NCBI GenBank assembly: GCA_963783675.1
Contig: CAWAOU010000016.1
Location: forward strand, 98,478-162,477
Source of the DNA: an uncultured Gammaproteobacteria bacterium
GTDB lineage: Bacteria > Pseudomonadota > Gammaproteobacteria > Competibacterales > JAHEDQ01
Length of the DNA: 64,000 nt
Direction: 5' to 3'
The notes beneath the pieces were generated by a model, which saw only the letters and a list, made by a program, of their open reading frames with translations, was not told where the DNA came from and ran no database searches. Made by a program: the position numbers and the translations under genes. This document shows positions 17,561 through 54,946 of this stretch, piece by piece. Numbering within the stretch: position 1 is the first letter of the stretch; each line of letters starts with the position of its first letter.

Positions 17561-18385
17561 TCAGGGGCTTCGATACCGACGTCTGCGACTTTGCAACGCC
17601 TGGGCGACGAACAAGAGTGTGAGGGACACAGCCAGAACGACGCTGGCGATGGCATTGATCTCCGGTGTCACGCCCCTACGGATGGATGAAAAAACATAAA
17701 TCGGGAGTGTGGTGTCGGCGCCGGCCACGAAAAACGCAATCACGAAATCGTCAAAGCTGAAGGTGAAGCTGAGCAGAAAGCCCGACATCACCGCAGGGAA
17801 AATCTGGGGCAGCGTGATCTGAAAAAAGGTCCGCATGGGTGGCGCATAGAGATCCGAGGACGCTTCGATCAGCGATCGGTCCATGTCCTGAATCCGGGTG
17901 CGCACGATGACAATGACCAGGGCCATGGTAAACAGGGTATGGGCGGCGATCACCGTGCCGGTGCCAAGCCTCAGACGGGGCGCCTGGCCGAGGTTCGCCG
18001 GCCAGGCGGCCGCCAGTAGCGGATTGACCGCATCGAACACGGTGACCAATGCCACCAGGGTGGCAATGCCGATGACAATGCCGGGTATGATGATGGCGGT
18101 GTAGGTCAGGCCGTCGAACATCAACCTCAGCACGCCACGCACCCGCTGCAGCGCCAGGGCCGCCATGGTGCCCATCACGGTGGCCAGCACCGCGGTGCAC
18201 AGCGCGATAAGCAGGCTGTTGATCAACGCCTCCATCATGAACGGGTTGCCGAACGCCCGCCCATACCAGCTTGCGGAACAGCAGCTGAAGTCGCTTGCAT
18301 GACGCCCCGCGTTGAAGCTGAACAGCACGATCAGGGCGATGGGCCCGTATAGAAACACATAGATGACCGCTGCATAGACCCGCAT
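17561..18385 (-). CDS. ABC transporter permease (PotC-like, polyamine-type)
   Basis: 274-aa ORF with about six hydrophobic segments and the EAA-loop IEASSDLYAPPMRTFFQITLPQIFPAVMSG. Its start overlaps the upstream permease stop by 1 nt. Confidence 0.9.
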   Translation of the reverse strand: MRVYAAVIYVFLYGPIALIVLFSFNAGRHASDFSCCSASWYGRAFGNPFMMEALINSLLIALCTAVLATVMGTMAALALQRVRGVLRLMFDGLTYTAIIIPGIVIGIATLVALVTVFDAVNPLLAAAWPANLGQAPRLRLGTGTVIAAHTLFTMALVIVIVRTRIQDMDRSLIEASSDLYAPPMRTFFQITLPQIFPAVMSGFLLSFTFSFDDFVIAFFVAGADTTLPIYVFSSIRRGVTPEINAIASVVLAVSLTLLFVAQALQSRRRRYRSP

Positions 18386-19257
18386 CAGATGACTGAAACG
18401 TCTTCCCGCCGACGACCGCGGGATGCGAAGTAAAGATACCCGGTCACCGCCAACAGCATAATTACCACCAGGGCAACGGCCACCGCCGAGCCGAACGGCC
18501 AGTTGCGGGACTGCAGAAACAGGTCCACCAGGGCGTTGCCCACGAAGAACACCTTGCCGCCGCCGAGGATGGCGGGGATCAGGTACTCACCCATCAACAG
18601 GATGAACACCAGCAAGCACCCGGTGACGATGCCGGGCAGTGACATGGGCAGGGTCACCTGCAGAAATGATCTGAGCGGACTGGCCCCGAGATCGGCCGAG
18701 GCTTCCAGCAGCCGTTTGTCCAGTTTCTCCAGACTGACGTAAATGGGAAACACCATCAGCGGCAGATAGCCGTAGACGATGCCCACCAGAACCGCGAATG
18801 GCGTATTGATCAGGCGCACATCGTCCAGGCCGAACTGGGCCAGAAGTGCCGGAATGCCGCGCCCCCCCAGGATGAAAATCCAGGCATAGGTTCGAATCAG
18901 AAAGCTGGTCCAGAACGGCACCACCACCAGGGCGAGCAGCAAAGGCTTGGCCCGGGCGCTGGCGCGGACCCCGAGGAAATAGGCCAGCGGATAGGCAAAC
19001 AGCAAACACAGTACCGTGCCCAAGGGCGCCAGGGTCAGGGTGTTGGTGAACGCCTTGAGCCGGGCCGGAAGATTGGCGTACTGGGCCAAGGTGAAGGCCG
19101 GCTGGTATCCCCCAGCCGGCCCCCGCTCCCCCAGGCTGAACACCAGGATCACGACCAATGGAAGCACCAGGAGCAGCAGAAACCACAGGGTGGTCGGCAG
19201 CAACAGCATGGCGGTGACAACGCTGCGTGACCCGTCGGATTGCTGTGCCTTGGCCAT
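18385..19257 (-). CDS. ABC transporter permease (PotB-like, polyamine-type)
   Basis: 290-aa ORF with the EAA-loop LEASADLGASPLRSFLQVTLPMSLPGIVTG. Confidence 0.9.
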   Translation of the reverse strand: MAKAQQSDGSRSVVTAMLLLPTTLWFLLLLVLPLVVILVFSLGERGPAGGYQPAFTLAQYANLPARLKAFTNTLTLAPLGTVLCLLFAYPLAYFLGVRASARAKPLLLALVVVPFWTSFLIRTYAWIFILGGRGIPALLAQFGLDDVRLINTPFAVLVGIVYGYLPLMVFPIYVSLEKLDKRLLEASADLGASPLRSFLQVTLPMSLPGIVTGCLLVFILLMGEYLIPAILGGGKVFFVGNALVDLFLQSRNWPFGSAVAVALVVIMLLAVTGYLYFASRGRRREDVSVI

Positions 19258-19281
19258 GCCGGTCGGCTGCCCCCGGTCCGA

Positions 19282-20430
19282 TCAGGCCGCCTTGAAGCGG
19301 GCCAGAATCTCGGCCCGCAGCGGATCGGTCAAGGTGGTTGCCGCACCGAACTCCAGCGGGTCCAGCAGCTCCGCCGCCGGATACATGATGGGGTCGTTGA
19401 GCATCTCCTCAGGCAGCAGGTCGTTGGTGCGGCTGTCGGCGCTGGGATAACCATGGACCATGACTTCCCGGGCATTGACCTCGGGATCCAGCAGATAGTT
19501 GATCAGGGCATAGGCCGCCTCCGGATGCTCCGCGCCCTTCGGAATGGCGTAGAAATCACTCCAGATTTCACCGCCTTCCCGACCCAAGACATAGACCATC
19601 TCCGGCATGTCTCGGTGCAACTGGGACCCGTCTCCGGTCCAACACATGGACATCCAGGCATCACCGCTGCGCATGGAGGGCTGATAGTCGCTGTTGATGG
19701 CAAACAGATGCGGCTTGGCCTTGAGCAGCAGTTCCTCGGCATCGGCCAGTTCCTTGGGATCCACCGAATTGAAGGAGTAGCCGTAGTACTTGAGCGCGTT
19801 GCCGATGGTGGTGAGTTGATAGTCGTGCACCATGGTCCGCCCCGAGGCCGGGCCCATGGTGAGATCCCAGAACGCCTTCCAGGTGGTGGGGTTGTCGGTC
19901 ACCTTGGCGGAGTTCACCACGTAACCGGTGGTGCCCCAGTTCTTGGGCACCGCGTACACGGTGCCGTTGACGGTGCCGGGTTCAGTAAATCGCGAATCGT
20001 ATGCGTCGGGCACAAAGTTGGGCAGCTTGGACAGATCCAGGGGCTCGATCAGGTCCAGGTCCACATAGGTTGTGATGGTGTAGTTGGTGGGCACGAAAAC
20101 GTCCCAACCGCTTCCGCCCGCCTGCAACTTAGCCAGCATCTCCTCGTTGGACCCGAACACGTTAACCTGGCTGCTCACCCCGGTCAGCTCGGCAAAAGTT
20201 TCGAAGTTCTGCGGGTCGTGGTAGTTCGGCCAGGTGGCCAACACCACCCGGTCGCCCAAGTCCGCGGCGTGAGCCCTGCGGCTTGCCAGCAGGCCCGGCA
20301 TATTGGCGGCCAGCACCGCGCTGGCGGTACCGAGCCCGGTGAGGCCCATGAAATCCCGGCGGCTCAGGCTCCCGGTCTTGCGATGGCGCCACAACAGTTT
20401 CATAAAGGTCTTGCGGTCGATGGTGCTCAT
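19282..20430 (-). CDS. periplasmic substrate-binding protein (PotD/PotF-like) with a twin-arginine signal
   Basis: I prefer the ATG at 20430, with GGGAGA upstream. The N-terminus is MSTIDRKTFMKLLWRHRKTGSLSRRDFMGLTGLGTASAVLA...AHA. The body has a PotD/F-like pattern (VVLATWPNY..., WGTTGYVVN). Confidence 0.9.
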   Translation of the reverse strand: MSTIDRKTFMKLLWRHRKTGSLSRRDFMGLTGLGTASAVLAANMPGLLASRRAHAADLGDRVVLATWPNYHDPQNFETFAELTGVSSQVNVFGSNEEMLAKLQAGGSGWDVFVPTNYTITTYVDLDLIEPLDLSKLPNFVPDAYDSRFTEPGTVNGTVYAVPKNWGTTGYVVNSAKVTDNPTTWKAFWDLTMGPASGRTMVHDYQLTTIGNALKYYGYSFNSVDPKELADAEELLLKAKPHLFAINSDYQPSMRSGDAWMSMCWTGDGSQLHRDMPEMVYVLGREGGEIWSDFYAIPKGAEHPEAAYALINYLLDPEVNAREVMVHGYPSADSRTNDLLPEEMLNDPIMYPAAELLDPLEFGAATTLTDPLRAEILARFKAA

Positions 20431-20511
20431 GGTCGGTATCTCCCGTTCATGGGTGGTTGCTGCGGTGGCATGGTCGCACACCGGTGGATGTATCTCTGGG
20501 CGCCGGTCCGA

Positions 20512-21669
20512 TCAGTCATCCAACAGGACCAGGCCCGAGGCGCTGCGCCAACCTATGCGGACCGGGTCACCGGGCCCGAGACCCAGCATCATTGCCGGTG
20601 ACGTTTTTGGCGTGCGCACCAGCACCTCGCCCAAGTCGCCGGTGCGCACCCGAAACTCAGCCTGGTCGCCGAGATAGATTCGATTGCTGATGGAGCCGGT
20701 CAGATGAACGTCCCAATCCTGCGGATTGTCGGTCGCGGTCGCGGCCTCGGACTGGGGCATCATATGGATAACCTCCGGGCGCACCGCCACCACGCAGGCA
20801 CTGCCGACGGCCAGCGCGGGGGCGCTCGCGGAAGGGGGAGCGGATAGCAACATGCCCCCCGCCGTCCGCACAACGATCTCAGGGTCATCCGTCGACTCGG
20901 ACCGGCCCTCGAAAAAGTTCGACTCCCCGACAAAGTCCGCCACATAGCGGTTGACCGGGGCATCATAGAGTTCAGCCGGCGTAGCCGACTGCGTAATGCG
21001 ACCGGCGCGCATGATGCTGATGGTGTCGCTCATGGACAGGGCTTCCTCCTGGTCATGAGTCACCAGCAGAAAGGTGATGCCCACCTCCCGCTGCAGCGAC
21101 TGCAGTTCCATCTGCATTTCCCGCCGCAGCTTACGATCCAGTGCGGCCAGCGGCTCATCCAGCAACAACACCGTAGGCCGATTGATCAGGGCCCGGGCCA
21201 GAGCCACCCGCTGCTGTTGTCCACCGGACAACTCCCAGATCTGCCGCCCGCCGAATCCCGGCAGGCGCACCAGTTCCAGCGTTTCCTCCACCCGCCTGGC
21301 CACTTCCGAAGCCGGCGGACGAGGTGAACGTTGTCGCAAACCATAGCCTATGTTGTCGGCCACGTTGAAATGGGGAAACAACGCATAGTGTTGAAACACC
21401 ATGTTCACCGGGCGCTTGTGTGCCGGCACGCCAACCATCGGGCGGTCTCCGATCATGACCTGGCCGGCACTGGGCTGATCAAAGCCCGCGATCAGTCGCA
21501 ATGAGGTGGTCTTGCCGCAGCCCGACGGGCCGAGAAACGAGTGAAACGCGCCCTGACGCACGGCCAGGTCCACCCGGTCCAAGGCGGTGACGTCGCCGAA
21601 TCGCTTGGTGACACCCAGAAACTGGATATCCAAGGCGGTGGATTGGGGTTTGTTCAAAGTCGCATACAT
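20512..21669 (-). CDS. ABC transporter ATP-binding protein (PotA-like)
   Basis: Walker A GPSGCGKTT, signature LSGGQQQRVALARAL and Walker B VLLLDEPL are present. The ORF is open to 21756. The ATG at 21669 (MYATLNKPQ...) gives the usual distance to the first beta-strand, but the start is uncertain. Confidence 0.9.
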   Translation of the reverse strand: MYATLNKPQSTALDIQFLGVTKRFGDVTALDRVDLAVRQGAFHSFLGPSGCGKTTSLRLIAGFDQPSAGQVMIGDRPMVGVPAHKRPVNMVFQHYALFPHFNVADNIGYGLRQRSPRPPASEVARRVEETLELVRLPGFGGRQIWELSGGQQQRVALARALINRPTVLLLDEPLAALDRKLRREMQMELQSLQREVGITFLLVTHDQEEALSMSDTISIMRAGRITQSATPAELYDAPVNRYVADFVGESNFFEGRSESTDDPEIVVRTAGGMLLSAPPSASAPALAVGSACVVAVRPEVIHMMPQSEAATATDNPQDWDVHLTGSISNRIYLGDQAEFRVRTGDLGEVLVRTPKTSPAMMLGLGPGDPVRIGWRSASGLVLLDD

Positions 21670-22039
21670 TCCAGACCAGGTCGGATCGGCAACCGGAAGG
21701 ACATCGCTCCGGCGTGCGCCATCCAAGGCGTGCATCATCCAAGTAGAGTAGATCATACAGAAGGGGAACGGTGCTTCAGCGTAACACCCAGGTTGGGCAT
21801 CTCATGAGACGCCCAACCTCCGTCGGTTCCAGGTGGATGTGCTGCGGTGTGCGAAGGTACCCGAATCATATAGCTCGCGACCCGAGGCGGTGGAGCCAGC
21901 AGAGATGTTGCCCGTCACCGCAACTTTCAACGGTTATGAACCATGGCGCGACAGCAAACCTGCCGCAATCCGTCAGGGTCATAGCCCCTGGTTTTACTCG
22001 CGCGGTTGCACGTCTATCAGGCAAACAAGCTGGCCTGGG

Positions 22040-22200
22040 ACGAAACCCGAGACAGTGGTAAGCGCTGGACAGAATGGCAAGCATCCTTGCACTCCGAGTG
22101 ACTGAGGATCTTTAATCACCACAGGATCTTCAATGCGAGCGATGATCTTGACGCGGCCACCGCAGCGCTTTCAGGTCTCAAGGTCGATGTTCCGCGGCAG
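22040..22200 (-). pseudogene. relic of an IS91-family-like transposase C-terminus
   Basis: The minus strand reads NIDLET*KRCGGRVKIIARIEDPVVIK, then (after a frameshift) ILSH / LGVQ. This resembles the C-x-x-C-G-G-x-[MV]-x-I-I-A-x-I-x-D-x-x-V-I-x-K-I-L-x-H-L-G tail I associate with IS91-type transposases. A TGA sits where the first Cys is expected. No intact upstream body is present. Confidence 0.4.
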
Positions 22201-22580
22201 GGACCCCAGTTACCCGACGCCAGGCAGAGTCCCCAGCGCGCGGTTCTTCCGCACCGAGGTCAACCTTCTTTTCTCAGCTCCTTCAGTCAGTTGGCGTTAA
22301 GTAAGTGCCATTCGGCTCTGAGACCAGTCCTCGAAGGTCTTGATAGGTTACGAGACTGCGCTGGGGGTCACGGAAAGCTCAGCCGAGGCACCCGAACGTG
22401 CGGCGAACTGAAACACGCGCATGACATTCAGGGACGGGCCCTTCGGACGCGCGAATGCAACTGGTATTCGCTACCCCTCGACCTTTTTTGCCTCGACATT
22501 CTGAACGTCATGCATCAAAGCTGCGGATTAGCAACACACCGCTCCATCGCTCAAGCTAAGGAAAACTCAGGAGATCAGAC

Positions 22581-23897
22581 ATGAGCATTGCACGACGTAA
22601 CTGGGTTCCCAATCAGAGCGAAGCACGTGTACAGAGCATCGCGGAACGCACGGCGCTGGAGAGCAGCGCCCAGAGTCTTGCTCAGATCAACGCTCTGGCA
22701 GAACGCAACCGGGCCATCCACGAAAGGGAGTGTTTTAATCTGAACCCCGCGACCAACGTCATGAATCCGAAGGCCGAGGCCCTGTTGGCCTCCGGCATCG
22801 GGTCGCGCCCGTCATTGGGCTATCCGGGGGACAAGTATGAGATGGGCCTGGAAGCCATCGAAGAAATCGAGGTCATCGCGGCCACGCTTTGCGCTGAGGT
22901 GTTTGACGCCCGGTTCGCCGAGATAAGGGTGCCATCGGGCGCCATCGCCAACCTCTACGGCTTTATGGCGACCTGCAAGCCGGGGGACACGATTATCGCG
23001 CCCCCTGCGTCCATTGGCGGGCACGTCACCCACCACGCCGCAGGATGCGCCGGCCTTTACGGATTGAGAATCCTGAACGCACCGGTACGCGTCGATGGGT
23101 ACACCGTCGATGTGGACGCGCTGCGCGATCTGGCCCTGCGCGAGAAGCCCCGGCTGATCACGGTCGGCGGAAGCCTCAACCTGTTCGAGCACCCGGTACG
23201 CGAGGTCCGCGCCATCGCCGACGAACTGGGCGCCAAGGTGATGTTCGACGCGGCCCATCAATGCGGGATCATTGCCGGCAAAGCCTGGGCGAACCCCCTG
23301 GCAGAGGGGGCGCACCTCATGACCATGAGCACCTACAAGAGCCTTGGTGGTCCGGCGGCGGGACTGATCGTCTCCAACGACGCCGAGATTGCAGAACGCC
23401 TCGACGCCATCGCCTTCCCGGGGATGACCGCAAACTTTGATGCCGCAAAGTCGGCCGCTCTGGCTGTGACCATGCTCGATTGGCGCGAACACGGACGCGC
23501 CTATGCCAGGGAAATGATCGACATGTCCATGGCCTTGGCGCAGGCGCTGGACGCTCGGGACGTGCCCGTTTTTGCAGGGAGCCGAGGGTTCACCTCGTCG
23601 CATCAATTCGCCGTCGCGGCGGCGACCTATGGCGGCGGTCAGGCGGCGTCGAAAAGGTTGCGCCAGGCGGGTTTTCTGGCCTGCGGGATCGGCTTGCCGA
23701 TAGAAGACGTCGCGGGCGATATGAATGGGCTGCGCATAGGCACACCGGAACTGGTCAGATGGGGTATGACGCGAACCCATGCGGACCGACTGGCGCAGTT
23801 GATCGCAAAGGCGCTGACCAGCGCCGATCCGGCCGAGATGCTGCCCGAAGTGTCTGCCTGGCGACAGGAATTCGATCGGCTGCACTTCGTGATTTGA
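22581..23897 (+). CDS. serine hydroxymethyltransferase-fold PLP enzyme (divergent GlyA-family paralog)
   Basis: 438-aa ORF with AGGAG 7 nt upstream. NLNPATNVMNP, GYPGDKYEMG and HLMTMSTYKSLGGPAAGLIV parallel the SHMT blocks. The expected PLP-Lys sits in STYKS rather than the canonical TTHKT. Confidence 0.85.
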   Translation: MSIARRNWVPNQSEARVQSIAERTALESSAQSLAQINALAERNRAIHERECFNLNPATNVMNPKAEALLASGIGSRPSLGYPGDKYEMGLEAIEEIEVIAATLCAEVFDARFAEIRVPSGAIANLYGFMATCKPGDTIIAPPASIGGHVTHHAAGCAGLYGLRILNAPVRVDGYTVDVDALRDLALREKPRLITVGGSLNLFEHPVREVRAIADELGAKVMFDAAHQCGIIAGKAWANPLAEGAHLMTMSTYKSLGGPAAGLIVSNDAEIAERLDAIAFPGMTANFDAAKSAALAVTMLDWREHGRAYAREMIDMSMALAQALDARDVPVFAGSRGFTSSHQFAVAAATYGGGQAASKRLRQAGFLACGIGLPIEDVAGDMNGLRIGTPELVRWGMTRTHADRLAQLIAKALTSADPAEMLPEVSAWRQEFDRLHFVI

Positions 23898-24041
23898 GCG
23901 TTGGCCAGCGCAGCCCGGATTCAGCATCTCAGGGCAAACCGATCGTATCTGCCCGATCGCCGGTGAGGCGCCTCTGATCTATTCCGGACGACGAAGATTG
24001 GCGGGTGGAATGTACAGATTCAAGAGGCGGATCGCGGGGCA

Positions 24042-24127
24042 GATCGCGGGTAATAGTTGTTCTATTGCCAAAATCTGCAACGATGAAGCTTGTGCATTTC
24101 AGTCCCAAGGTGCACGTTCACGAATAG
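24042..24127 (-). repeat. copy C (inverted orientation) of the ~80-nt intergenic repeat family
   Basis: The plus strand GATCGCGGGTAATAGTTGTTCTATTGCCAAAATCTGCAACGATGAAGCTTGTGCATTTCAGTCCCAAGGTGCACGTTCACGAATAG is the reverse complement of the A/B consensus. The match to copy B extends into ...TGCACGTTyAyGnATAG. Confidence 0.6.
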
Positions 24128-24139
24128 ATCAGACCTCCC

Positions 24140-25885
24140 CTAGTTCTCATGCACTTCAACAACGGTCTCCCTCGCTGCCTGTTTGACTCTCCGTAGCTCG
24201 CGCAAGTGGTCCGCCAGACGAATTGCCATTGCAACAATGGTTAAAACGGGATTTGCTTGACCGCAAGTTGGGAACACGGCGCTGCTTGCAACGTACAGAT
24301 TCTCCATCCCATGTACGCGGCAGTTCGGGTCTACGACACCGTACTTTGGGTCAATGGACATTCGAGTTGTTCCGGCTTGGTGCACACCGTCTCCGACCTG
24401 GTCAAGTATGTGTTCCTCGCGATCGGCTCTTTTGTACTCAAGCTCTCCTACGTTGCTGCGCCGTAACGCCGCATCAATTAATTCGTGCGCCGATGCGGTG
24501 CTCTCTATGTCGGATTCCTTCCATCTGTAGTCTACCGTCAGGCGTGGCATTCCAAGGCTGTCTTTCTCTCGCGACAGATACACGCGACTGTCCCTATTCG
24601 GAGACTGCTCGCTGCAGTATCTCAAATCATACACATTGTTTTTACTCTTTATAACAAACCCCGGGATTCGTGGTTTCTGGACGTAACGCTGATACAGCCA
24701 TCTCGGAACAACGCTCAGTACCGCGGGAAAGTCTGATATGACATTCCTTAGATGCTTTCCATATGTGCTAACGTCGGTGCCGTCCAGTCGCTTCTTTAAC
24801 ATCTCGGTCCTTCCAAGAGCCAATTTCCGCTGATACCCGGGGGCAAGGAGATCCCTTAACCCTGGCGTCTGCAAGGCGAGGTAACTCATCGAGAGTACGC
24901 CACTTCCATGGACTGGATCATGCTTGGGGGAATTATCCAGCGATGCGACAAAGTTGAGGATACCGCGTTCTCTCTGTTTGGCTTCAGGTATCCAAAATCG
25001 GCGCCTACAATAGATTCCGTCCCGAGTTTTTTCAAATCCGTAAACGACATTACTTTTACGGTCTTTTAATTTGATTTTCGCGATGGAGCCGTAAATGTGA
25101 CCCATATAACCCCGGCCAAGCCAACCCGAGTGATTACCAATCCCATCCTTCTGAATGTAATTCGACGCAAGCAAAAGCCGCGTGGTTTCAAGGCAACCCG
25201 CCGCGAGGATGAAATCTTTTGCTTTTACATAATAGTTATTTCTTTTGAGCGACGAGACCGTCAGCTGAGATATCCGATCACTAGACTGAGCCAGATCTAA
25301 ACTCGTGCAATTGCTGTTCAGAAACAGCCGAAGGGATGGACTGTCCTCGAGCTGCCTCCTGTACCTGCGGCCGAAGTTTGTCGGGGGACCCCATCGCTCC
25401 AACGCGCTAGTGACCACTTCACCATCGGGGAATTCGGGGATCATATCTCGTTGTGCCGATGGAACTGCGAGGTTCGAACTGTAAAGATATTCACCGACTT
25501 CGCAGTAAACTTGGGCTCTACGGTAGAAGGGCTCTAATGTTGTCTTGGAAAAAGGCCATCCAGATAAGTCGACGTAGTCCCGTTCTTCGAAATCGATATC
25601 ATCGAGTGGAAGGCAGCGGCCGCCCCAGACCGTTGTAGTTCCACCAAGCTGGCGATGACGGGATTCGTGGAGAGGCGCATGGCAGCCGCTGTTAACCAAA
25701 GTGCCCTTGTACAGGTCCTGAGTTGCATCATCCAGTTCTGTGCTACCCCCCTCAAGCAATATTACATCTAAGTTTGCAGCCGCGAGTTCTAGTGCGAGGG
25801 TGATTCCGCCGGCACCACCGCCGACCACACAAATGTCACTTTCGAATACAGCACCCGCTTCTATTTTGTGTCCGTCGATGATCAC
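24140..25885 (-). CDS. GMC-family FAD-dependent oxidoreductase
   Basis: 581-aa ORF with the N-terminal dinucleotide fold DICVVGGGAGGITLALELA...LLEGG. The C-terminal strings HQAGTTRMS and NLYVASSAVFPTCGQANPVLTIVAMA are typical of GMC_oxred_C. Visibly AT-richer than the flanks. Confidence 0.9.
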   Translation of the reverse strand: MIIDGHKIEAGAVFESDICVVGGGAGGITLALELAAANLDVILLEGGSTELDDATQDLYKGTLVNSGCHAPLHESRHRQLGGTTTVWGGRCLPLDDIDFEERDYVDLSGWPFSKTTLEPFYRRAQVYCEVGEYLYSSNLAVPSAQRDMIPEFPDGEVVTSALERWGPPTNFGRRYRRQLEDSPSLRLFLNSNCTSLDLAQSSDRISQLTVSSLKRNNYYVKAKDFILAAGCLETTRLLLASNYIQKDGIGNHSGWLGRGYMGHIYGSIAKIKLKDRKSNVVYGFEKTRDGIYCRRRFWIPEAKQRERGILNFVASLDNSPKHDPVHGSGVLSMSYLALQTPGLRDLLAPGYQRKLALGRTEMLKKRLDGTDVSTYGKHLRNVISDFPAVLSVVPRWLYQRYVQKPRIPGFVIKSKNNVYDLRYCSEQSPNRDSRVYLSREKDSLGMPRLTVDYRWKESDIESTASAHELIDAALRRSNVGELEYKRADREEHILDQVGDGVHQAGTTRMSIDPKYGVVDPNCRVHGMENLYVASSAVFPTCGQANPVLTIVAMAIRLADHLRELRRVKQAARETVVEVHEN

Positions 25886-25930
25886 TCTCTATCTCCCCCT
25901 AATTAGCAATTGCTGTTCATAAATACCTAA

Positions 25931-27118
25931 GGAACCTCTGCAGATTTCCCGGCAGGGTATAATGCCGATCATTGGTCCACACCCCTTCGACGCCCACAAC
26001 CGAGAGACACCAGATGAAGCAAACCACCTTTGCCTCGTTGAGCTACCCGTCGAAGAAGATGCAGACGAGACGGGAAAAGTTTCTGGCGGAGATGGATCAG
26101 GCGGTGCCTTGGGCGCAGTTGATCGCGCTGATCGAACCTCATTACACCAACAAGGGCCAACGCGGGCGCTCGCCGATGCCGCTTCAGAGCGTGCTGCGGA
26201 TCTACTTCATGCAGCAGTGGTATGCAATGTCCGATCCGGCGATGGAAGATGCGCTCTACGAGATTGAATCGATGCGCCGTTTTGCCGGGCTGGAGTTGAT
26301 CGACGACGCCTTGCCTGATGAGAGCACAATTCTCAGGTTTCGCCACCTGCTCGAGCGCCGCCAGTTGACGAAGCGGATGTTGGACACGATCAACACGCTG
26401 CTGGAGGAACGAGACGCGCTTCTCAAAGGTGGCACCATGATCGATGCCACGATCATTCACGCCGCGCCCTCGACGAAGAACCGGGCGAAGGCACGTGATC
26501 TGGAGATGCACCAGACCAAGAAAGGCAACCGGTGGTACTTCGGGATTAAGCTGCAGGTGGGGGCGGACGTGAACAGCGGTGCCGTGCACACCGTCTCGGC
26601 CACGCCGGCCAACGCGCCCGACATGAGTGAGATGCCGAATCTGCTGCGCGAGGACGATCGCTCGGTGCTCGGTGACGCGGCTACGTGAACAAAGGTATCA
26701 AGCAGGGCGGCCCGCGAGGCGGGCGTTTACTGGGGTGTGGCGCTGAAAGCCCAGCCGAAACGCCGATTGGGTGGCGGGCAGAAGCGGCGCAATCGAAAGA
26801 TGTCCTCGATTCGCAGTCGCGTCGAGCATGTATTTCGGGTGCTGAAGCGCCAATTCGGCTACGCCCAAGGTCGATACCGCGGCTTAGCCAAGAATGCGGC
26901 ACAGGTCTTTACCCTGATCGCGCTCACCAATTTGTACCTGAAGAGGCGGCAGTTGATGGCCTGAGCGGACCCGTCCGCCCGGAATCTGCGAACCGGGGCG
27001 AAACGGGCCGGAAGCAGACGCAAAACAGGCAGGAAATCGCCAAGTCATCCGGTTTTCTGTACGCGGACAGCGCCTCATGGAGATTCTGTCGCCTTTTCGC
27101 AAATTCTTCAGAGGCTCC
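25931..27118 (+). mobile_element. IS5-family insertion sequence (about 1.19 kb), transposase disrupted
   Basis: Imperfect terminal inverted repeats: GGAACCTCTGCAG (25931-25943) versus the reverse complement of CTTCAGAGGCTCC (27106-27118), which is GGAGCCTCTGAAG. The internal gene is clearly IS5-like. I could not identify a clean target-site duplication. Confidence 0.8.
26014..26964 (+). pseudogene. IS5-family DDE transposase, interrupted
   Basis: MKQTTFASLSYPSKKMQTRREKFLAEMDQAVPWAQLIALIEPHY...MEDALYEIESMRRFAG...MHQTKKGNRWYFGIKLQVG parallels E. coli IS5 InsH. There is an in-frame TGA at 26686-26688 (GDAAT*). The C-terminal part SSIRSRVEHVFRVLKRQFGYAQGRYRGLAKNAAQVFTLIALTNLY resumes in the original frame. 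Confidence 0.85.
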
Positions 27119-27269
27119 CAAACGATCAGTGGGATGGAAGAGTTACTATCAATGGCGATACGATCAAGGCTATGACCGCCTGCAGTTATTTCGGAGATTC
27201 TCAAGCTCCCCTTCGGGAGGCACAATCCATATAGCACAACCTGGCTGTGTGGAACACAAAAGGCGTGCG

Positions 27270-27536
27270 CTACGCAAGTTTTCTGTTGGCATGAAGGGTA
27301 GTCAGATTTTGTCGCTTCATTTTTCTGGCGACATAGCGAACGGCAACAACCGCGATCAAAGCGATTCCCAAGATTATCAAAATGACGGCTAGCGCAAGAA
27401 AGAAACTCTCCTGAAGAGCATCGTTTTCGTCAAGTCGATTGCAATAAAATATCTTTTCAGGAATGCCGGAAACCAACCCAGCGATTACCATTATAATTCC
27501 TGACCAAGACACTTTCGACATACGTCTCATCCCCAA
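27270..27536 (-). CDS. small hydrophobic protein (two predicted TM helices), function unknown
   Basis: 88-aa ORF in a very AT-rich stretch. Hydrophobic segments are WSGIIMVIAGLVSGI and FFLALAVILIILGIALIAVVAV, followed by a basic tail. No homolog recognised. Confidence 0.4.
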   Translation of the reverse strand: MGMRRMSKVSWSGIIMVIAGLVSGIPEKIFYCNRLDENDALQESFFLALAVILIILGIALIAVVAVRYVARKMKRQNLTTLHANRKLA

Positions 27537-27538
27537 TG

Positions 27539-27721
27539 TTAGCTACTAGCGTTGTTCTTACGGCCTGTCCAAGAAGGGCTAACTTTGTTGACATAATCAA
27601 ATTCAAATAATATTACTGAGCACCACGGAAAAAAGTTAATCCATGTTGGTATCATGGCGAGGATGGCGGTTGTTGTTATTTCAACCTGAGCCGCACGGTC
27701 GATGCTTGTCCTTGAACTCAT
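27539..27721 (-). CDS. possible small membrane protein, function unknown
   Basis: The AT-rich part of ORF 27539..27808 read from the internal ATG at 27721 gives MSSRTSIDRAAQVEITTTAILAMIPTWINFFPWCSVILFEF.... Its stop lies 2 nt before the next ORF's start. Weak call. Confidence 0.25.
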   Translation of the reverse strand: MSSRTSIDRAAQVEITTTAILAMIPTWINFFPWCSVILFEFDYVNKVSPSWTGRKNNASS

Positions 27722-28048
27722 CGTCTGAACGGCGTTCGGGCAGCGTCGGTTCCTCCCTATACCCGTCGCAGCCCGCCGACCGCCCCTACCCCGCTCGGAC
27801 GGCGTCACCCGCGCCCGGTACCGGCTGTTGGGCGCAAAGACCCCGTTATAAGCGGGTCAGGTTGACCCGCGGTTTGGGCACCCCATAGACCCGTATCCCC
27901 CGTCGCTTGCGGGTGTTTGCGAAGGCACCCGACTCATCCAGCACCCGACCCGGGTCGGGTGGAAGATTGTGCCGGCGGCGTCAACGACCTATAACTGACA
28001 ATGGCCGGCGCAATCGTGTGACGGGCCGCCAAACGGGGGAAACCACAT

Positions 28049-29215
28049 ATGAAGACGGGCTTGGGTTCATGCGCGGCGTTCGCGTTTGCGCTGGCGACCG
28101 GTGTCGCCGCTACCGCCGGCGCCGCCGATATGCTCGACAAATTGGGCGCCGGCGAAGGGCAGGTCAATATCGTGGCCTGGCCGGGCTACATCGAGCGCGG
28201 CGAAACCGACAAGAACTTCGATTGGGTGTCGAAGTTCGAGGCGGCCACCGGTTGCGAGGTCAAGGTCAAGACCGCCAACACCTCGGACGAGATGGTGGCG
28301 CTGATGAACGAGGGTGGGTTCGACCTGGTCACCGCCTCCGGCGACGCCTCGCTGCGGCTGATCGCGGGCAAGCGGGTGCAACCCGTCAACATCGCACTGA
28401 TTCCCAGTTGGGGCACGGTGGACGATCGCCTGAAAAACGCGCCCTGGCATACGGTGGACGGCATGCACTACGGCACCCCGTATATGTGGGGGCCCAATGT
28501 GCTGATGTACAACACCACCGCGTTCAAGGAAGCGCCCACCAGCTGGAACGTGGTGTTCGAGGAAATGACGCTGTCGGACGGTGCCACCAACAAGGGCCGG
28601 GTTCAGGCCTACGACGGGCCTATACACGTGGCCGATGCCGCCAACTACCTGATGTTCCATCAGCCGGAACTGGGCATCAAAAGCCCGTACGAGCTGAACG
28701 AGGATCAGTACAAGGCGGCCCTGGACCTGCTACGCCAACAGCGTCAGTTAGTCGGCCGATACTGGCACGACGCCTTTATCCAGATCGACGATTTCAAGAA
28801 CGAGGGCGTGGTGGCCTCGGGCTCCTGGCCATTCCAGGTAAACCTGCTGGCGGGGGACAAACAGCCCATCGCCTCGGTAATCCCCCAGGAAGGGGCCACC
28901 GGCTGGGCCGACACCACCATGATGCATACCGATGCGGAGAACCCGAACTGCGCCTACATGTGGATGGAACACACCCTGTCGTCAAATTTGCAGAGTGATC
29001 TATCGGTCTGGTTCGGCGCCAATCCATCGGTACCGGCCGCCTGCACCGATGGCCGCGGCATACAGACCGCCGAGGGCTGCACCACCAACGGCATGGACGA
29101 TTTCGAACGCATCAAATTCTGGCAGACCCCGGTGTCAAAATGCGCCAGCCAGGGCGAGTGCGTTCCCTACTACCGATGGGTGTCGGACTACATCGGCGTC
29201 ATCGGCGGACGTTGA
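28049..29215 (+). CDS. periplasmic substrate-binding protein (PotD/PotF-like), Sec-type signal
   Basis: 388-aa ORF with signal MKTGLGSCAAFAFALATGVAATAGA. The strings NIVAWPGYIE, WGPNVLMYNT and WADTTMMH fit the polyamine-type SBP pattern. Confidence 0.9.
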   Translation: MKTGLGSCAAFAFALATGVAATAGAADMLDKLGAGEGQVNIVAWPGYIERGETDKNFDWVSKFEAATGCEVKVKTANTSDEMVALMNEGGFDLVTASGDASLRLIAGKRVQPVNIALIPSWGTVDDRLKNAPWHTVDGMHYGTPYMWGPNVLMYNTTAFKEAPTSWNVVFEEMTLSDGATNKGRVQAYDGPIHVADAANYLMFHQPELGIKSPYELNEDQYKAALDLLRQQRQLVGRYWHDAFIQIDDFKNEGVVASGSWPFQVNLLAGDKQPIASVIPQEGATGWADTTMMHTDAENPNCAYMWMEHTLSSNLQSDLSVWFGANPSVPAACTDGRGIQTAEGCTTNGMDDFERIKFWQTPVSKCASQGECVPYYRWVSDYIGVIGGR

Positions 29216-29253
29216 TTGCGATTCAGGAAACCCCTGATGCGGTCTGATATGCA

Positions 29254-30243
29254 ATGACCGGGGCGGTCCGATTTTCCCGGGTGTCGCGACATTTCGGTGA
29301 CGTCCGCGCGGTGGACGCGGTGGATCTGGAGGTCGCCGCGGGCGAGTTTTTCGCCATGCTGGGTCCATCAGGATCGGGCAAGACGACCTGTCTGCGCCTG
29401 ATCGCCGGTTTCGAACAACCCACCGCCGGGCACATCGAAATCTTCGGCGAAACGGCGGAAGGCGTCCCGCCCTATCGGCGCAACGTCAACACGGTGTTTC
29501 AGGACTATGCCCTGTTCCCGCATCTGAATGTGCTGGACAACGTCGCCTACAGCCTGATGGTGCGGGGCGTGGCAAAGCCGGACCGTCATCGGGCGGCGGA
29601 ACAGGCGCTGGAACTGGTTCAGTTGCCCGGCTACGGGACACGCCGCCCGGGCCAGCTGTCCGGCGGCCAGCGTCAGCGGGTGGCCCTGGCCCGGGCCCTG
29701 GTCAATCGGCCCAAGGTGCTGCTGCTGGACGAACCCCTGGGGGCGCTGGATCTGCGCCTGCGGGAACAGATGCAGGAAGAGCTCAAGGCCCTGCAAAAAT
29801 CCCTGGCCATCACCTTTGTGTTTGTCACCCACGATCAGGGGGAGGCGCTGTCCATGGCCGATCGCGTTGCCGTCTTCGACCAGGGACGCATCATCCAGGT
29901 GGGCAGCCCCGAAGACATCTACCAGCGACCGAACACCCGCTTTGTCGCCGAATTCGTGGGCTCATCCAACGTGCTGCCACCAGCTTTCGTCCAGGCCCGG
30001 TGGGGACGGGATGCCTGGGCGAGCCTACGCCCCGAGGCGGTCACCCTGGGTCGGGAGGACGGCATCCAGGCCCGTCTGATCTCCCGGGCCTATCTCGGCG
30101 CCAGCACCCGTCTGGTGCTCGATGCCGAAGGCCTGCGCCTCAGCGCGATGGTCCCCACCGGCCAGGCCTTGCCGGCGGACGGGGATACGGTGACCGTGTC
30201 CTGGGCGCCGGAGGCGGTTCACTTTATGACCGGCGAGGAATGA
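29254..30243 (+). CDS. ABC transporter ATP-binding protein (PotA-like)
   Basis: Walker A GPSGSGKTT, signature LSGGQRQRVALARAL and Walker B VLLLDEPLGALD are present. Confidence 0.9.
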   Translation: MTGAVRFSRVSRHFGDVRAVDAVDLEVAAGEFFAMLGPSGSGKTTCLRLIAGFEQPTAGHIEIFGETAEGVPPYRRNVNTVFQDYALFPHLNVLDNVAYSLMVRGVAKPDRHRAAEQALELVQLPGYGTRRPGQLSGGQRQRVALARALVNRPKVLLLDEPLGALDLRLREQMQEELKALQKSLAITFVFVTHDQGEALSMADRVAVFDQGRIIQVGSPEDIYQRPNTRFVAEFVGSSNVLPPAFVQARWGRDAWASLRPEAVTLGREDGIQARLISRAYLGASTRLVLDAEGLRLSAMVPTGQALPADGDTVTVSWAPEAVHFMTGEE

Positions 30244-31187
30244 GCGGGTCCGGCACGGCCATTCTGCCCGGACGACGGGGCCTGTTCGGCGGCCTGTGGG
30301 ATCTGTTCTGGCGCAGACCGAATCTGCTGCTGTTTCTGATGCTGCTGCCACCGGTGCTGTGGCTGGGCATCATCTATCTCGGCGCCCTGTTCGCACTGCT
30401 TGCCCAGAGCTTTTTCTCCATCGACGAGTTCTCCGGCCTGGTGCGCTACGAGTTCACCCTGAAGACCTATGGCGAGCTGCTGCGGCCCTCCAATTTCGAC
30501 ATCATCGTGCGCACCGTAACCATGGCGGCTCTGGTCACCGTCGCCGCCGCGGTGGTCGCCTTTCCCATCGCCTACTACGCCGCGCGCTACGCACGGGGCA
30601 AGTGGAAGGCTTTGTTCTATTTAGGGGTGATGCTGCCCTTGTGGTCCAGCTACCTGGTGAAGATCTACGCCTGGAAACTGATCCTGGCAAAGGAGGGCAT
30701 ACTCAACTGGGTGTTTGCCAAACTGCATCTGACCTGGCTGCTGGATGCCCTGCTGGCCATCCCGATTATTGGCGGAAACTCCCTGTCCATCAGTTATATC
30801 GGCACCTTTGTGGTGTTTCTTTACGTCTGGCTGCCGTTCATGATCCTGCCGCTGCAGGCGGCTCTGGAACGGGTGCCGGCCACCCTGACCGAGGCCTCTT
30901 CGGATCTGGGCGCGGCCCCGCGACAAACACTGCGTCACGTGATTCTGCCGCTGGCCCTGCCCGGCATGATCGCCGGCTCGATCTTCACCTTTTCGCTCAC
31001 CCTGGGCGACTACATCATCCCCCAGATCATCGGCACTTCGAGGCTATTCATCGGCCAAGCGGTGTACGCACAGCAGGGCACCGCCGGCAACATTCCCCTG
31101 GCAGCGGCGTTTACCGTGGTGCCCATCGTGATCATGGGGGTCTATCTCTGGCTGGCCAAACGTCAAGGGGCCTTCGATGCGCTCTGA
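30240..31187 (+). CDS. ABC transporter permease (PotB-like)
   Basis: The frame is open from 30000. The ATG at 30240 overlaps the ATPase stop (ATGA) and starts [43 protein letters not shown]. The EAA-loop is [30 protein letters not shown]. Confidence 0.9.
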
Positions 31188-31992
31188 CCACTCCCAGTCG
31201 GCACCGCTGGGGCTGAAGATCGCAGCCGTGGCCGGACTGCTGTTTCTGCACCTGCCGATCGCGTTGATTTTCGTCTACGCCTTCACCACCGAGGAAAAAA
31301 GCTACCAGTGGCCGCCGCCGGGCTTCACCCTGAAATGGCTGGGCGTCACCTGGGAGCGGTCCGATGTGTGGGAGGCCCTGACCCTGTCGGTGCAGGTGGC
31401 GACGATTTCGACCCTGGTGGCGCTGGTACTGGGGACGCTGTGCGCGGCGGCGGTGTCCCGCTCAAGATTTTTCGGCCGGGAGACGCTGTCACTGCTGGTG
31501 ATCCTGCCCATCGCACTGCCCGGCATCATCACCGGCATCGCGCTGCGATCCGCCTTTAACCTGGCCGACATCCGGTTCTCGTTCTGGACCATTGTGCTGG
31601 GCCACGCCACCTTCTGCGTGGTGGTGGTCTATAACAATGCCGTGGCCCGATTTCGCCGCACCTCCGGATCCCTGATCGAGGCGTCTATGGATCTGGGCGC
31701 CGACGGCTTCCAGACCTTTCGATATGTGATCCTGCCCAACATCGCCACCGCGCTGCTGGCCGGTGGCATGCTGGCCTTTGCCCTGTCCTTCGACGAGGTG
31801 ATCGTCACCACCTTCACCGCCGGCCAACAGGCCACGCTTCCGATCTGGATGCTGGAGGAACTGGTCAGACCGCGACAGCGGCCGGTCACCAATGTGGTGG
31901 CCATGGTGGTGGTGGTGGTGACCTTCGTACCGATTCTGGGGGCCTACTACCTCACCCGGGACGGCGACCAGATCGCCGGCGCCGGAAAATAG
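31177..31992 (+). CDS. ABC transporter permease (PotC-like)
   Basis: 271-aa ORF with the EAA-loop [30 protein letters not shown]. It overlaps the previous gene by 11 nt. Confidence 0.9.
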
Positions 31993-49820: not shown

Positions 49821-50190
49821 ATCGGGCCTTCGAAAACTGTGATCGGCGCATCGACCGGGATGGGCACACCCGGGCAAAACAATCTGGATTTGGATTAAGA
49901 CGCACAGTCTACAGAATGTGTGACCGACTCGCATGGAAGCTCGCACGCAATCGGTCATTCGAAACCGGCGAAGCCTAAACGCCCCGCCCCGCTCATGTGC
50001 AGCGGCCAATGGCGCGAGCATCCCGCGCCCGAGCCAACAGCGCCGCATGCGGACAGGCCTGGGAGACGTCTTGCGTCTCAACCGCGCTTAATACACCTGA
50101 TTGAGAGCCAGAGCCGCAGACATGTTCGTCGTCAGAACACTCGAAGACCAACCTTGAAGCACAAGGCGCGCGGGCTAAGGCGTCTCTGAC

Positions 50191-50278
50191 CTATGCATAA
50201 ACGTGCATATTGGGACTGAAACGCACAGCTTCATCATTGCAGATCTCGGCAATAGACCAACGACTACCCGCAAACTGC
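50191..50278 (+). repeat. copy B of the ~80-nt intergenic repeat family
   Basis: CTATGCATAAACGTGCATATTGGGACTGAAACGCACAGCTTCATCATTGCAGATCTCGGCAATAGACCAACGACTACCCGCAAACTGC. Aligns to copy A and, reverse-complemented, to copy C. Contains ATTGC-N8-GCAAT dyad symmetry. Confidence 0.6.
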
Positions 50279-50344
50279 GTCTCGCATCTGCGCATTTTCG
50301 GTCACCGATCTGATTCGTCCAGAGTAAATCAGAAACGCCTTAAC

Positions 50345-51160: not shown

Positions 51161-52111
51161 ACCAGGTGAAGGGTCGAGTGAGGGGAACACGCCGAATGTC
51201 CGGCGTCCGCAGAAAATGGCCACTCGGATCGCTTAACATACTCATCCTGGTTCGTCCGTGCGGAGATTCTCCGCATCTTAAACATCGTCCCCCGACAAGA
51301 GGTATGTCAAAAAAGACGAGTCGCCGAAGCGCGAGCGCGGAGCCGACATCCGAGTCGAAGTCCAATGTGTCAACTCTTCGGGCGTCAAGATCGACTACAA
51401 GGTTCCACGATCTTTCGAATTCCTGACGGACTCCCAAATGAGCGCAGGCCAGTCCTGCGCCCACCCGCCTAGCGCCTGGGCGCTCCTCGCCTTGCTGAGA
51501 TGCAACGCACTTGCGGGAAGAGACACCAGCCTGCATCGCTTACCGATTTATCGTTTGATGTAGATCGCTGCCGTGGTATTGAGGTGAAATCCTCGATGCC
51601 AAGCTGAATGAGCCGGTTAACCCAAGTATCGGGCGCCCGACCGGCGATGATTGCGGCCACACAAGGCAATCTATGAGGCCCCGTCTATAATAAGCAGACG
51701 GGCTCTACCATCGGATGCTCCGCGGTCACGGCGATTCGGGTATCGCATTCGGAGGCAATACAGATCGATCTTCGACATCCCGCGGCGGCAGTAGACCCGC
51801 TGGGAGGGTTCGTTAGAGCAGCGTGCCGCTTGACGTGAAATGCATCCGGAACAAGCTCCTTAGTCGCCCAGTGCGCTGGAAAACGATCGCTGCCGACATC
51901 ATTGCGGCAAACAAAGAACGCTAAACTCAGTAACGAGGACATGGTGACGCTGACATCAGGCCATCCGGAACCGGCCAGCAAACCCTCACGCAGGCCGGAG
52001 TCACTATTCCAGCGGCGCTGAACCACGTCTAAGCGATTGCAGCCGCTGGCGCGCCGGTAGTGCTCTATTGCGCGGCTTCATCAACGATATTCAATCGGAG
52101 CACCGAAAACT

Positions 52112-53902
52112 ATGCGAATTCTGCTTATTGCTTCTGCATACAACGGGTTAACCCAGCGCGCACATGTCGAACTGGACACGTTGGGACATGAGGTTTCCAT
52201 CACGCTGGCGCTGAGTGAAGCGGAAATCAGGCAGGCACTCGCCTTCTTCGAGCCTGATCTCATCATCTGCCCATTCCTTCGAGAAAGGGTACCGGACGAT
52301 GTATGGCAGCAACATGTTTGTATCATCATCCACCCTGGCATCAAGGGCGATCGGGGTCCGTCCTCACTCGATTGGGCAGTCATGGAGAACGAAGCGGAAT
52401 GGGGCGTGACCGCTTTGCAGGCCGCAGAAGAAATGGATGCCGGCGATATTTGGGCGACATCGAATTTTCCGATGAGACCGGCAACCAAAGCCAGTCTTTA
52501 CCGGCGCGAAGTAACGCAAACCGCGATCAAAGCGATGTTGGAAGCCGTGAACCATTTCTCAACCGGAACATACCGACCGGAACCTCTCAATTACAGCAAC
52601 ACCGATGTTCGTGGAACACTGCGCCCATCGATGAAACAAAGCGAACGGGCAATTGACTGGAACATCGATAGAACAGAGGACATCGTCAGAAAAATCAATG
52701 CCGCAGACAGCAATCCCGGATTACTGGACAGGATCAATGGAGAACCTTTCTATCTGTACGGCGTGCATAGAGAGGGAATACTGCAAGGCTCTGTTCCTGG
52801 CGAAATAATCGCCCAGCGACATGGTGCGATCTGCCGAACCACCATCGACGGTGCAGTATGGATCACGCATTTGAAGCGAACAAAAGCTCAACGAGTGCCT
52901 TTTTACAAACGATGGACAGTCGCCCAGAGACTGGATTTCAAACTCCCGGCGGCGACGCTCCTCGGAGCAACCTTAAACAACATCGACGAATCAAACATTG
53001 AACCGCTGTTCATGGGGGAAGAGGAAACCTACAAAGAAATTTGGTACCGGGAAAGAAATGAAATTGGTTACTTGCACTTCGACTTCCACAATGGCGCCAT
53101 GAGCACACAACAATGTCATCGTTTGCGCGAAGCCTATCGCCTCGCCCGTGAACGCCCCACCCGGGTCATCGTTTTGATGGGAGGGCAGGACTTTTGGTCC
53201 AATGGAATCCACCTCAACGTTATCGAAGCCGCAAAGGACCCAGCCGCCGAGTCCTGGCGAAATATCAATGCTATTGATGACGTAGTGCGAGAGATCATCA
53301 CAACAACGACGCATTTGACGCTTTCCGCGGTGTGGGGCGGAGCAGGTGCTGGTGGCGCAATAATGCCGTTGGCCGCTGACCGCGTTTGCGCGCGTGCAGG
53401 CTGCATTATGAATCCTCATTATAAAACCATGGGTTTGTACGGTTCCGAATACTGGACTTATCTGTTACCCAAGCGAATCGGAAAAGCCAGGGCTGTCGAA
53501 ATGATGCAAACACCCCTACCCCTCGGCATGAAGAAAGCCGTCGAAATCGGTATGATCGACAATATATTGTCTGACAACTTCGACGAATTCGGCGATCAAA
53601 TAGCGCAGATCGCCGAATCAATGGCCGACGATGCGAATTTCGGAAATGCTCTTCAGCACAAGATCAAACGTCGCGCCAAGGACGAAGAAATCCGTCCACT
53701 GGCCGCGTATCGCGCAGCTGAACTCAAGCAAATGAAAATGAATTTCTCCGGCCAATTCTACGGCGGCGATCAGAATTATCATCAGGCCCGTTACAATTTC
53801 GTTCACAAAATTCGGCCCAAGCAAACTGCCGAATACCTGGCTAGGCACCGGCGGATTGATAGTCGAATGTTTGAAGAGTTAACGCAACCGCTCAACTATT
53901 AG
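52112..53902 (+). CDS. HypX/HoxX-like two-domain protein (N-terminal formyltransferase fold + C-terminal crotonase/enoyl-CoA-hydratase fold)
   Basis: 596-aa ORF. MRILLIASAYNGLTQRAHVELDTLGHEV...IIIHPGIKGDRGPSSLDWAVMENEAEWGVTALQAAEEMDAGDIWAT closely parallels HypX N-termini as I recall them. The C-terminal strings are RVIVLMGGQDFWSNGIHLNVIEAA and AVWGGAGAGGAIMPLAADRV. Confidence 0.9.
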   Translation: MRILLIASAYNGLTQRAHVELDTLGHEVSITLALSEAEIRQALAFFEPDLIICPFLRERVPDDVWQQHVCIIIHPGIKGDRGPSSLDWAVMENEAEWGVTALQAAEEMDAGDIWATSNFPMRPATKASLYRREVTQTAIKAMLEAVNHFSTGTYRPEPLNYSNTDVRGTLRPSMKQSERAIDWNIDRTEDIVRKINAADSNPGLLDRINGEPFYLYGVHREGILQGSVPGEIIAQRHGAICRTTIDGAVWITHLKRTKAQRVPFYKRWTVAQRLDFKLPAATLLGATLNNIDESNIEPLFMGEEETYKEIWYRERNEIGYLHFDFHNGAMSTQQCHRLREAYRLARERPTRVIVLMGGQDFWSNGIHLNVIEAAKDPAAESWRNINAIDDVVREIITTTTHLTLSAVWGGAGAGGAIMPLAADRVCARAGCIMNPHYKTMGLYGSEYWTYLLPKRIGKARAVEMMQTPLPLGMKKAVEIGMIDNILSDNFDEFGDQIAQIAESMADDANFGNALQHKIKRRAKDEEIRPLAAYRAAELKQMKMNFSGQFYGGDQNYHQARYNFVHKIRPKQTAEYLARHRRIDSRMFEELTQPLNY

Positions 53903-53941
53903 AATCAGTTGCTTTGATAGCATGCCGAGAGGGAATTACCG

Positions 53942-54781: not shown

Positions 54782-54946
54782 TATTGAATCAGGGCGGATC
54801 GTTTTGTGTGCCAACAACAACGTTGCTCGGGAGGCTCTGATCTATTCCTGAATCTGCGCCTTAAATCACACATTTCACCCTTCAATTCGCTTTGTCCAGA
54901 CTAATTCAGGGATTCCCCAGGATGAGCATATCGAGCAAATGATCTA

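Follow-up and report, generated by a model that had tools for sequence, protein, structure and literature searches.

A probable mosaic islet of low-GC DNA around a disabled IS5 element in an uncultured gammaproteobacterium

The DNA analyzed here, referred to below as the window, is a 64-kb stretch (64,000 nucleotides) of contig CAWAOU010000016.1 from an uncultured Gammaproteobacteria bacterium, and our subject is a small islet of lower GC content within it. The islet lies between an SHMT-like gene, which ends at 23897, and a ydcS-type ATP-binding cassette (ABC) transporter operon, which starts at 28049. It contains a gene for a GMC-family oxidoreductase, an insertion sequence (IS) of the IS5 family and a short module with a gene for a small membrane protein, and on the left it is bordered by a palindromic repeat (copy C) resembling a miniature inverted-repeat transposable element (MITE). 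The features of the islet, including one open reading frame (ORF) that we do not accept as a gene, are as follows.

23967-24139, no strand: MITE-like palindromic repeat (copy C), 173 bp, GC 0.54, with inverted ends and a hairpin
24140-25885, minus strand: intact orphan gene for a GMC-family FAD oxidoreductase of 581 aa, with a GTG start and the ribosome-binding site GGGGGAGA
25886-25930, no strand: AT-rich stub of the GMC upstream region, 45 bp, GC 0.36, ending in the IS5 target CTAA at 25927-25930
25931-27118, plus strand: defective IS5-family insertion sequence, 1188 bp, with the ends GGAACCTCTGCAGATTTCC... and ...CAAATTCTTCAGAGGCTCC
26014-26964, plus strand: IS5 transposase reading frame, about 316 codons long and interrupted at codon 225 by a single in-frame TGA (26686-26688)
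27119-27227, no strand: spacer between IS5 and the small-protein module, 109 bp, GC 0.50
27228-27729, minus strand: low-GC (0.44) module consisting of the small-membrane-protein gene and 190 bp of conserved non-coding DNA upstream from it
27270-27521, minus strand: gene of an 83-aa, DUF3955-like protein with two transmembrane helices
27539-27808, minus strand: spurious ORF, not a gene

The base composition was followed in 300-bp windows. GC dropped from 0.65 at 23550-23849 to 0.52 at 24000-24299, stayed at 0.46-0.54 up to 25.9 kb, rose to 0.58-0.65 over 26.0-27.0 kb, fell again to 0.43-0.47 at 27.15-27.75 kb and was back at 0.66 by 27750-28049. The background, determined in 500-bp windows over the whole 64 kb, had a mean GC of 0.607 +/- 0.047, and outside the islet 500-bp windows with GC of 0.52 or less were found at 52.4-55.7 kb only. 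By segment, GC was 0.514 in the GMC gene, 0.597 in IS5, 0.442 in 27228-27729, and 0.617 and 0.631 in the two flanks. It is clear from these values that the islet consists of two low-GC blocks with an IS5 of host-like composition between them. An initial annotation, made by eye, had described a single AT-richer islet at 24000-27810, with a sharp drop at about 24.1 kb right after copy C, low GC through the GMC gene, the lowest values at 27.2-27.75 kb and a return to the high-GC background upstream of the second ABC locus. Most of this description is borne out by the numbers, but the drop starts at the repeat itself, the islet is not uniform, and its low-GC DNA reaches only to about 27,730 and not to 27,810. 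At this right edge GC rises to 0.75, at the same point where the DNA similarity described below stops, and on the left host-like GC continues past the end of the SHMT-like gene up to about 23966.

The analysis of codon usage also revealed a deviation. With 32 genes of the window as the reference set, the GC content at third codon positions (GC3) of the GMC gene was 0.541 compared to 0.731 +/- 0.055 in the reference genes (z = -3.5), and its codon-usage distance B of 0.432 was above that of all 32 reference genes, the maximum of which was 0.414. The tetranucleotide usage of 24001-26000 correlated with that of the whole window with r = 0.37, where the mean was r = 0.86.

Because the islet is known from metagenome data, it has to be considered whether the GMC piece was misjoined across the flanking repeats (MITE and IS5) during assembly. 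Short-read contigs carrying the GMC gene do end inside both of these repeats, at 24039-24060 in copy C and within IS5, and the contigs of one sample switch between IS5 copies (see below). Nevertheless we find an artefact of this kind hardly credible, since seven contigs from seven samples and two repositories (ENA and JGI) span 23800-28100 gap-free at 99.8-99.9% identity, and since the MITE copies of the window are only about 72% alike and hence cannot mislead a long-k-mer assembler.

The GMC protein matched PF05199 (GMC_oxred_C) with 101.5 bits (cut-off 24.6) over positions 1-139 of the 139 in the model, and PF01266 (DAO) with 29.0 bits (cut-off 27.9), while PF00732 (GMC_oxred_N) was not detected in it by the Pfam scan. 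The FAD-binding GxGxxG motif is present as VVGGGAGG at residues 20-27. The motifs HQAGTTRM and GQANPVLT are present as well and may hold the catalytic His and the His/Asn pair that the family has near the C-terminus. When compared with 119 homologues the protein retains 98 of the 103 columns with a conservation of 90% or more, which is within the normal range of the family. Its relatives in the PDB are sugar-oxidising enzymes, namely glucose dehydrogenase, fructose dehydrogenase and pyranose oxidase, and the matches to them were confined to the C-terminal 130 aa. Among 5.8 billion proteins searched there were 1,073 homologues, of which the best non-self one was 51-52% identical and none exceeded 52%, and the homologues that could be named came from Cyclobacteriaceae, Gammaproteobacteria, Pyrinomonadaceae, Pedosphaera, Halothece, Pirellulales and Actinomycetota.

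Upstream DNA was present on the contig for four homologue loci (L106, L107, L109 and a Skermanella plasmid), and in all four an aldo-keto reductase gene is located directly upstream of the GMC gene, with the GMC homologues lying inside glycosyltransferase/Wzy/Wzz polysaccharide-synthesis clusters. The aldo-keto reductase and GMC genes together occupy 5051-7677 in L106, 4887-7653 in L107, 5064-7683 in L109 and 6099-9981 in L200; in L109 and L200 the two genes either adjoin directly or share a few bases. The pair was seen in a cyanobacterium, on an alphaproteobacterial plasmid and in two uncultured genomes of low GC. The pair may represent a two-step sugar oxidation/reduction step, and by analogy the GMC enzyme of the window would oxidise a sugar hydroxyl. 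Our search of the literature for a polysaccharide module with GMC and aldo-keto reductase genes returned nothing relevant. A module of aldo-keto reductase, GMC and glycosyltransferase that recurs in polysaccharide clusters of distant phyla appears to be uncharacterised; recognizing it may be of modest use. The GMC protein of the window is homologous to those of the module over its full length (39-52% identity, 97% coverage), but the window has neither the reductase nor the glycosyltransferases, and the GMC gene stands alone between IS5 and the MITE. Since no remnant of an aldo-keto reductase was found in the 64-kb window, we regard the GMC gene as an orphan out of context, and for this reason its presence should not be taken for a metabolic capability of the organism. 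In one population variant (L088) a 1-bp deletion at window position 25101 splits the GMC gene into pieces of 220 aa and 272 aa, which suggests that the gene is dispensable, unless the deletion is a consensus error.

The module at 27228-27729, the second low-GC block, showed 86% DNA identity over 432-502 bp to three metagenome contigs (L192-L194) with a GC of 0.44-0.46, and this similarity ends at 27228 and at 27729. The non-coding part at 27537-27729 is 86% identical to L193 and thus equal in conservation to the gene itself. The similarity to L192 is lost at about 27659, which places the module in at least three different contexts. For the 83-aa protein encoded by the module we found 38 representative homologues at E <= 1e-3 and 328 with a profile, and the family has the conserved loop FYGNRLDENxVLQESFFLPL. 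Nine of 13 close relatives matched Pfam PF13127 (DUF3955), the best at 6e-10. The protein of the window resembles DUF3955 in its size, two-helix layout and conserved loop motif, but it falls below the model (no match at E <= 1) and, at two positions that are nearly invariant in the family, has C in place of G and A in place of P. Our literature search on DUF3955 found nothing relevant and no function. Relatives of the small-protein gene adjoin either a phage-type integrase and several transposases or transposase fragments. The viral contigs contained a single distant relative of DUF3955 and nothing that matched the 27228-27729 module, and the tail of the islet had no match in the plasmid collection. 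A scan for promoters and terminators gave no more hits than shuffled sequence did.

The initial annotation had counted two tiny membrane ORFs in this area, only one of which, the gene at 27270-27521, turned out to be real. The ORF at 27539-27808 had no homologue in the protein collection, not even itself, and none of the population contigs had it called as a gene. Its frame holds two stops in the 86%-identical relative, and the differences between the two sequences are distributed as 13, 10 and 5 over codon positions 1, 2 and 3.

Taken together, the deviating composition, the scattered distribution of the GMC homologues, the relatives of the module with 44-46% GC and the contrast with the adjacent SHMT-like gene, the relatives of which are 71-84% identical and belong to marine Alphaproteobacteria, make a foreign origin the best reading. 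We therefore follow the initial annotation in regarding this DNA as horizontally acquired, and comparison of the sequences makes a horizontal origin of both low-GC blocks well supported, although it would concern two pieces and not one patch. The opposite view, that the segment is native and vertically inherited and owes its low GC to weak selection, low expression or a local mutation bias, agrees with its location at the same site in every known population member, with the lack of flanking repeats, tRNA or integrase, and with the lack of any comparison genome with shared synteny among the loci searched, and the variant with the 1-bp GMC deletion mentioned above hints at relaxed selection. On the other hand, a GMC protein that keeps so many of the conserved columns is not decaying, its closest relatives at 52% identity are spread across phyla, and the small-protein family is repeatedly found beside genes of mobile elements. 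Moreover, 500 bp of DNA, including a non-coding part, that are 86% identical to DNA of 44-46% GC are left unexplained by descent in a lineage with 62% GC. We consequently consider a native origin rather improbable.

Between the two foreign blocks lies the IS5 element. Insertion sequences of the IS5 group are about 1.2 kb long, carry one transposase ORF and short inverted repeats starting with GGAAGG, and produce a 4-bp target duplication of the type YTAR. The element of the window is similar in its length of 1188 bp, its DDE transposase in a single frame, its ends GGAACC/GGAGCC and its left flank CTAA, which is a YTAR site, and it differs by the in-frame TGA, by inverted repeats with no more than 17 of 25 matching positions, and by the right flank CAAA, which makes the duplication imperfect. 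The transposase scored 223 bits against NCBIfam NF033581 (IS5 family, cut-off 140) and matched DUF772 and DDE_Tnp_1 in Pfam. When the intact 314-aa transposase of L088, from the same population, was aligned to the window with tblastn, a single frame with one stop codon was obtained, and the TGA at 26686-26688 was without variant in any population contig aligned across it. The element is thus disabled, as initially annotated, although by one in-frame TGA and not by a frameshift. A frameshift or deletion, which the separate matches to NCBIfam model positions 1-200 and 220-285 had indicated, or alternatively two frameshifts, were rejected on the basis of the tblastn alignment.

The left end of the element was set where the flank of another IS copy diverges, and the right end by its match, as reverse complement, to the left one; 25931-25955 and the reverse complement of 27094-27118 are identical at 17 of 25 positions, where about 6 would be expected by chance. 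A right end at 27025-27051 (12 of 20) had been considered and was replaced by this one. The flanks of the element, CTAA (left) and CAAA (right), are identical at three of four positions and look like a decayed 4-bp target duplication.

It had been proposed that the IS5 delivered the patch or, alternatively, that it later disrupted part of it. Delivery, by a composite or one-ended transposon or by IS-mediated co-integration with subsequent decay of the IS, would fit the position of the IS in the middle of the islet and a left-border repeat that has IS5-like ends and no target duplication of its own. The imperfect target duplication (CTAA versus CAAA) could also have come from recombination between two IS copies, and in the contigs of one sample each half of the islet continues, at about 26218, into another IS5 copy. 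However, only one IS5 copy is present in the 64-kb window, with no second one bracketing the cargo as in a composite transposon, and low-GC DNA is found on both sides of the IS and not on one. Its GC3 of 0.72-0.80 is host-like, compared to 0.46-0.54 for the cargo, the same IS family is multi-copy in the population, and a flank match at three of four positions is the remnant expected from a simple old insertion. Delivery by the IS5 is therefore unlikely, and this part of the earlier proposal is not upheld.

Most likely the IS5 inserted afterwards by simple transposition and later died without having delivered cargo, as indicated by its host-like composition, its multiple copies in the host, the low-GC DNA on both sides and the near-duplicate flanks. 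With an insertion point 41 bp upstream of the GMC start codon, the original upstream region of the GMC gene must have been displaced. The earlier suggestion of a later disruption thus holds as far as a later insertion is favoured and the GMC gene is parted from its upstream DNA, but no gene is visibly broken. The nearest plasmid-borne relative of the element was 72% identical. In sample ERZ27251168 the two halves of the islet are found on separate contigs (L088 11305-12605 and L099 1-700), each of which changes at about window position 26218 to a different IS5 copy, and this switch is either an assembly chimera or a real variant formed by IS-to-IS recombination.

From the above we consider the islet to be probably a patchwork that arose from several separate events, with two foreign low-GC pieces and an IS5 inserted later, and not a functional system. 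Two foreign pieces of lower GC would have come to lie between the SHMT-like gene and the ydcS-type ABC transporter operon. The first would be a GMC gene torn out of a polysaccharide-synthesis module of aldo-keto reductase, GMC and glycosyltransferase, and the second the 500-bp module with the DUF3955-like gene, from a family that appears to travel with integrases and transposases. An IS5 already resident in the host would then have inserted at CTAA and shifted the former GMC upstream DNA 1.2 kb away, and its transposase would later have been lost through the nonsense mutation. The left border would be formed by a MITE-like repeat, likewise resident and with ends like those of IS5, that meets the GMC gene precisely at its stop codon. 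The shift in composition, the identity of the genes, the limits of the IS, its nonsense codon, the relative of the small-protein module at DNA level and the lack of the reductase partner are directly shown, and from them we infer both the order of events and the direction of transfer.

Several observations weigh against such a history. The islet is present at the same site in seven of seven spanning population contigs, and no islet-free relative was found among the population contigs and the SHMT-bearing loci. As the initial annotation had already observed, direct repeats around the islet are missing, the two borders having no common word of 10 nt or more; there is furthermore no tRNA gene in the 64-kb window and no integrase among the ORFs of the islet, so the sequence does not give the mechanism of integration. 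For the 86%-identical module, composition is the only ground on which a direction of transfer is assumed. With the nearest GMC homologue at 52% no donor is named, and according to our own calculation the match of the IS5 flanks at three of four positions would arise by accident with a chance of about 5%.

Exact-protein look-ups with the SHMT-like, GMC and ydcS-type proteins found matches only in the same population, always with the islet present. Among 160 SHMT-bearing loci of other taxa (80 from genomes and 80 from metagenomes) none shared any of 17 neighbouring proteins of the window, and for this reason the comparison of synteny is uninformative, and not negative, with respect to absence of the islet in relatives.

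Compared with known small genomic islets, which are strain-specific insertions of atypical composition in bacterial chromosomes, the patchwork described here is similar in its atypical GC, GC3, codon and tetranucleotide usage, in a cargo that is patchy across taxa, in its association with an IS and a MITE, and in its site between conserved operons. It differs by having no integrase, tRNA target or flanking direct repeats and by being put together from at least two foreign pieces without relation to each other, instead of being one unit. It is an ordinary small mosaic case, and the corrections made to its annotation (one real small gene, the IS5 nonsense mutation and the exact limits of the IS) are of limited practical value.

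Copy C, the left border of the islet, is located between the convergent SHMT-like and GMC genes and abuts the GMC stop codon. Its terminal inverted repeats are GGCGCCTCTGATCTATTC and GAATAGATCAGACCTCCC, the ends being also given as CTCTGATCTATTC and GAATAGATCAGAC, with 13-nt inverted ends at 23972-23984 and 24122-24134, and it folds into one long hairpin of -33.7 kcal/mol (z = -3.3). The flanks are GTGA on the left and CTAG on the right (24140-24143), i.e. without a target duplication, and the GMC gene has its TAG stop codon within this CTAG. The window contains two full and two partial copies of the repeat, every one of them intergenic; besides copy C they are the following.

50184-50336, minus strand: second full copy (copy X), with the flanks CTAA/TTAA
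1407-1488: partial copy
54835-54847: solo end, between two genes of a second low-GC island

As mentioned above the short-read contigs break within copy C, which indicates that the core of the repeat is multi-copy in the genome. The ends of the repeat begin with GG..CCTCTGAT and resemble IS5 ends of the same population; GGCGCCTCTGATCTATTC and the end of one such IS5 copy, GGAAGCTCTGATTTATTG, are alike at 13 of 18 positions when compared by eye. The repeat had no match in Rfam or among the sequences of the plasmid collection, and the 160 loci of other taxa did not contain it. We read it as a MITE of IS5 type on account of its ends, and knowledge of this lineage-specific family with IS5-like ends may also be of modest use. 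In common with MITEs derived from IS5-family elements it has a length of 150-175 bp, no coding capacity, terminal inverted repeats, a long hairpin, several copies and intergenic locations, and copy X is flanked by CTAA/TTAA; unlike them copy C lacks a target duplication, and the full copies seen are only two. That the IS5 transposase mobilises the MITE-like repeat is a conjecture.

The location of copy C raises the possibility that a resident MITE of IS5 type, or an IS5 transposase acting on its ends, was the capture point at which the foreign DNA was joined to the chromosome. This would account for a perfect CTAG on the GMC side without a matching duplication on the host side, and also for the presence of repeat ends in or near the second low-GC island (at 50.2 and 54.8 kb). 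If it were true, the MITE family would be a recurrent docking site for gene acquisition in the host lineage. We hold such a role of the repeat to be very unlikely, and in the preferred reading of the islet as a patchwork copy C would simply form its border.

The second low-GC island, at 52000-56200, is larger than the islet and has a GC of 0.48-0.53, a GC3 of 0.55-0.61 and a tetranucleotide correlation of r = 0.35-0.57 with the window. It contains the following genes.

52112-53902: formyltransferase/enoyl-CoA hydratase fusion of HypX/HoxX-like architecture, 596 aa
53942-54781: response-regulator-like protein
54947-56143: cyclic-nucleotide-binding histidine kinase

A GMC paralogue that would link the two low-GC regions was considered and rejected, as the fusion protein encoded by 52112-53902 shows no similarity to the GMC protein.

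With regard to the neighbouring genes, the SHMT-like protein scored 273 bits, compared to an NCBIfam cut-off of 335 for genuine SHMT. The islet and the SHMT-like gene together are located between two paralogous ABC transporter loci of the polyamine type in opposite orientation (17561-21756 and 28049-31992), the ATPase genes of which share a 142-nt stretch with 75% identity (21092-21233 and 29654-29795). Between the divergent ABC ATPase and SHMT-like genes there is an 820-bp gap without any called gene (21757-22580), which has a somewhat reduced GC of 0.56-0.59 and in which the population is polymorphic at several positions, among them a 1-bp indel at 21985.

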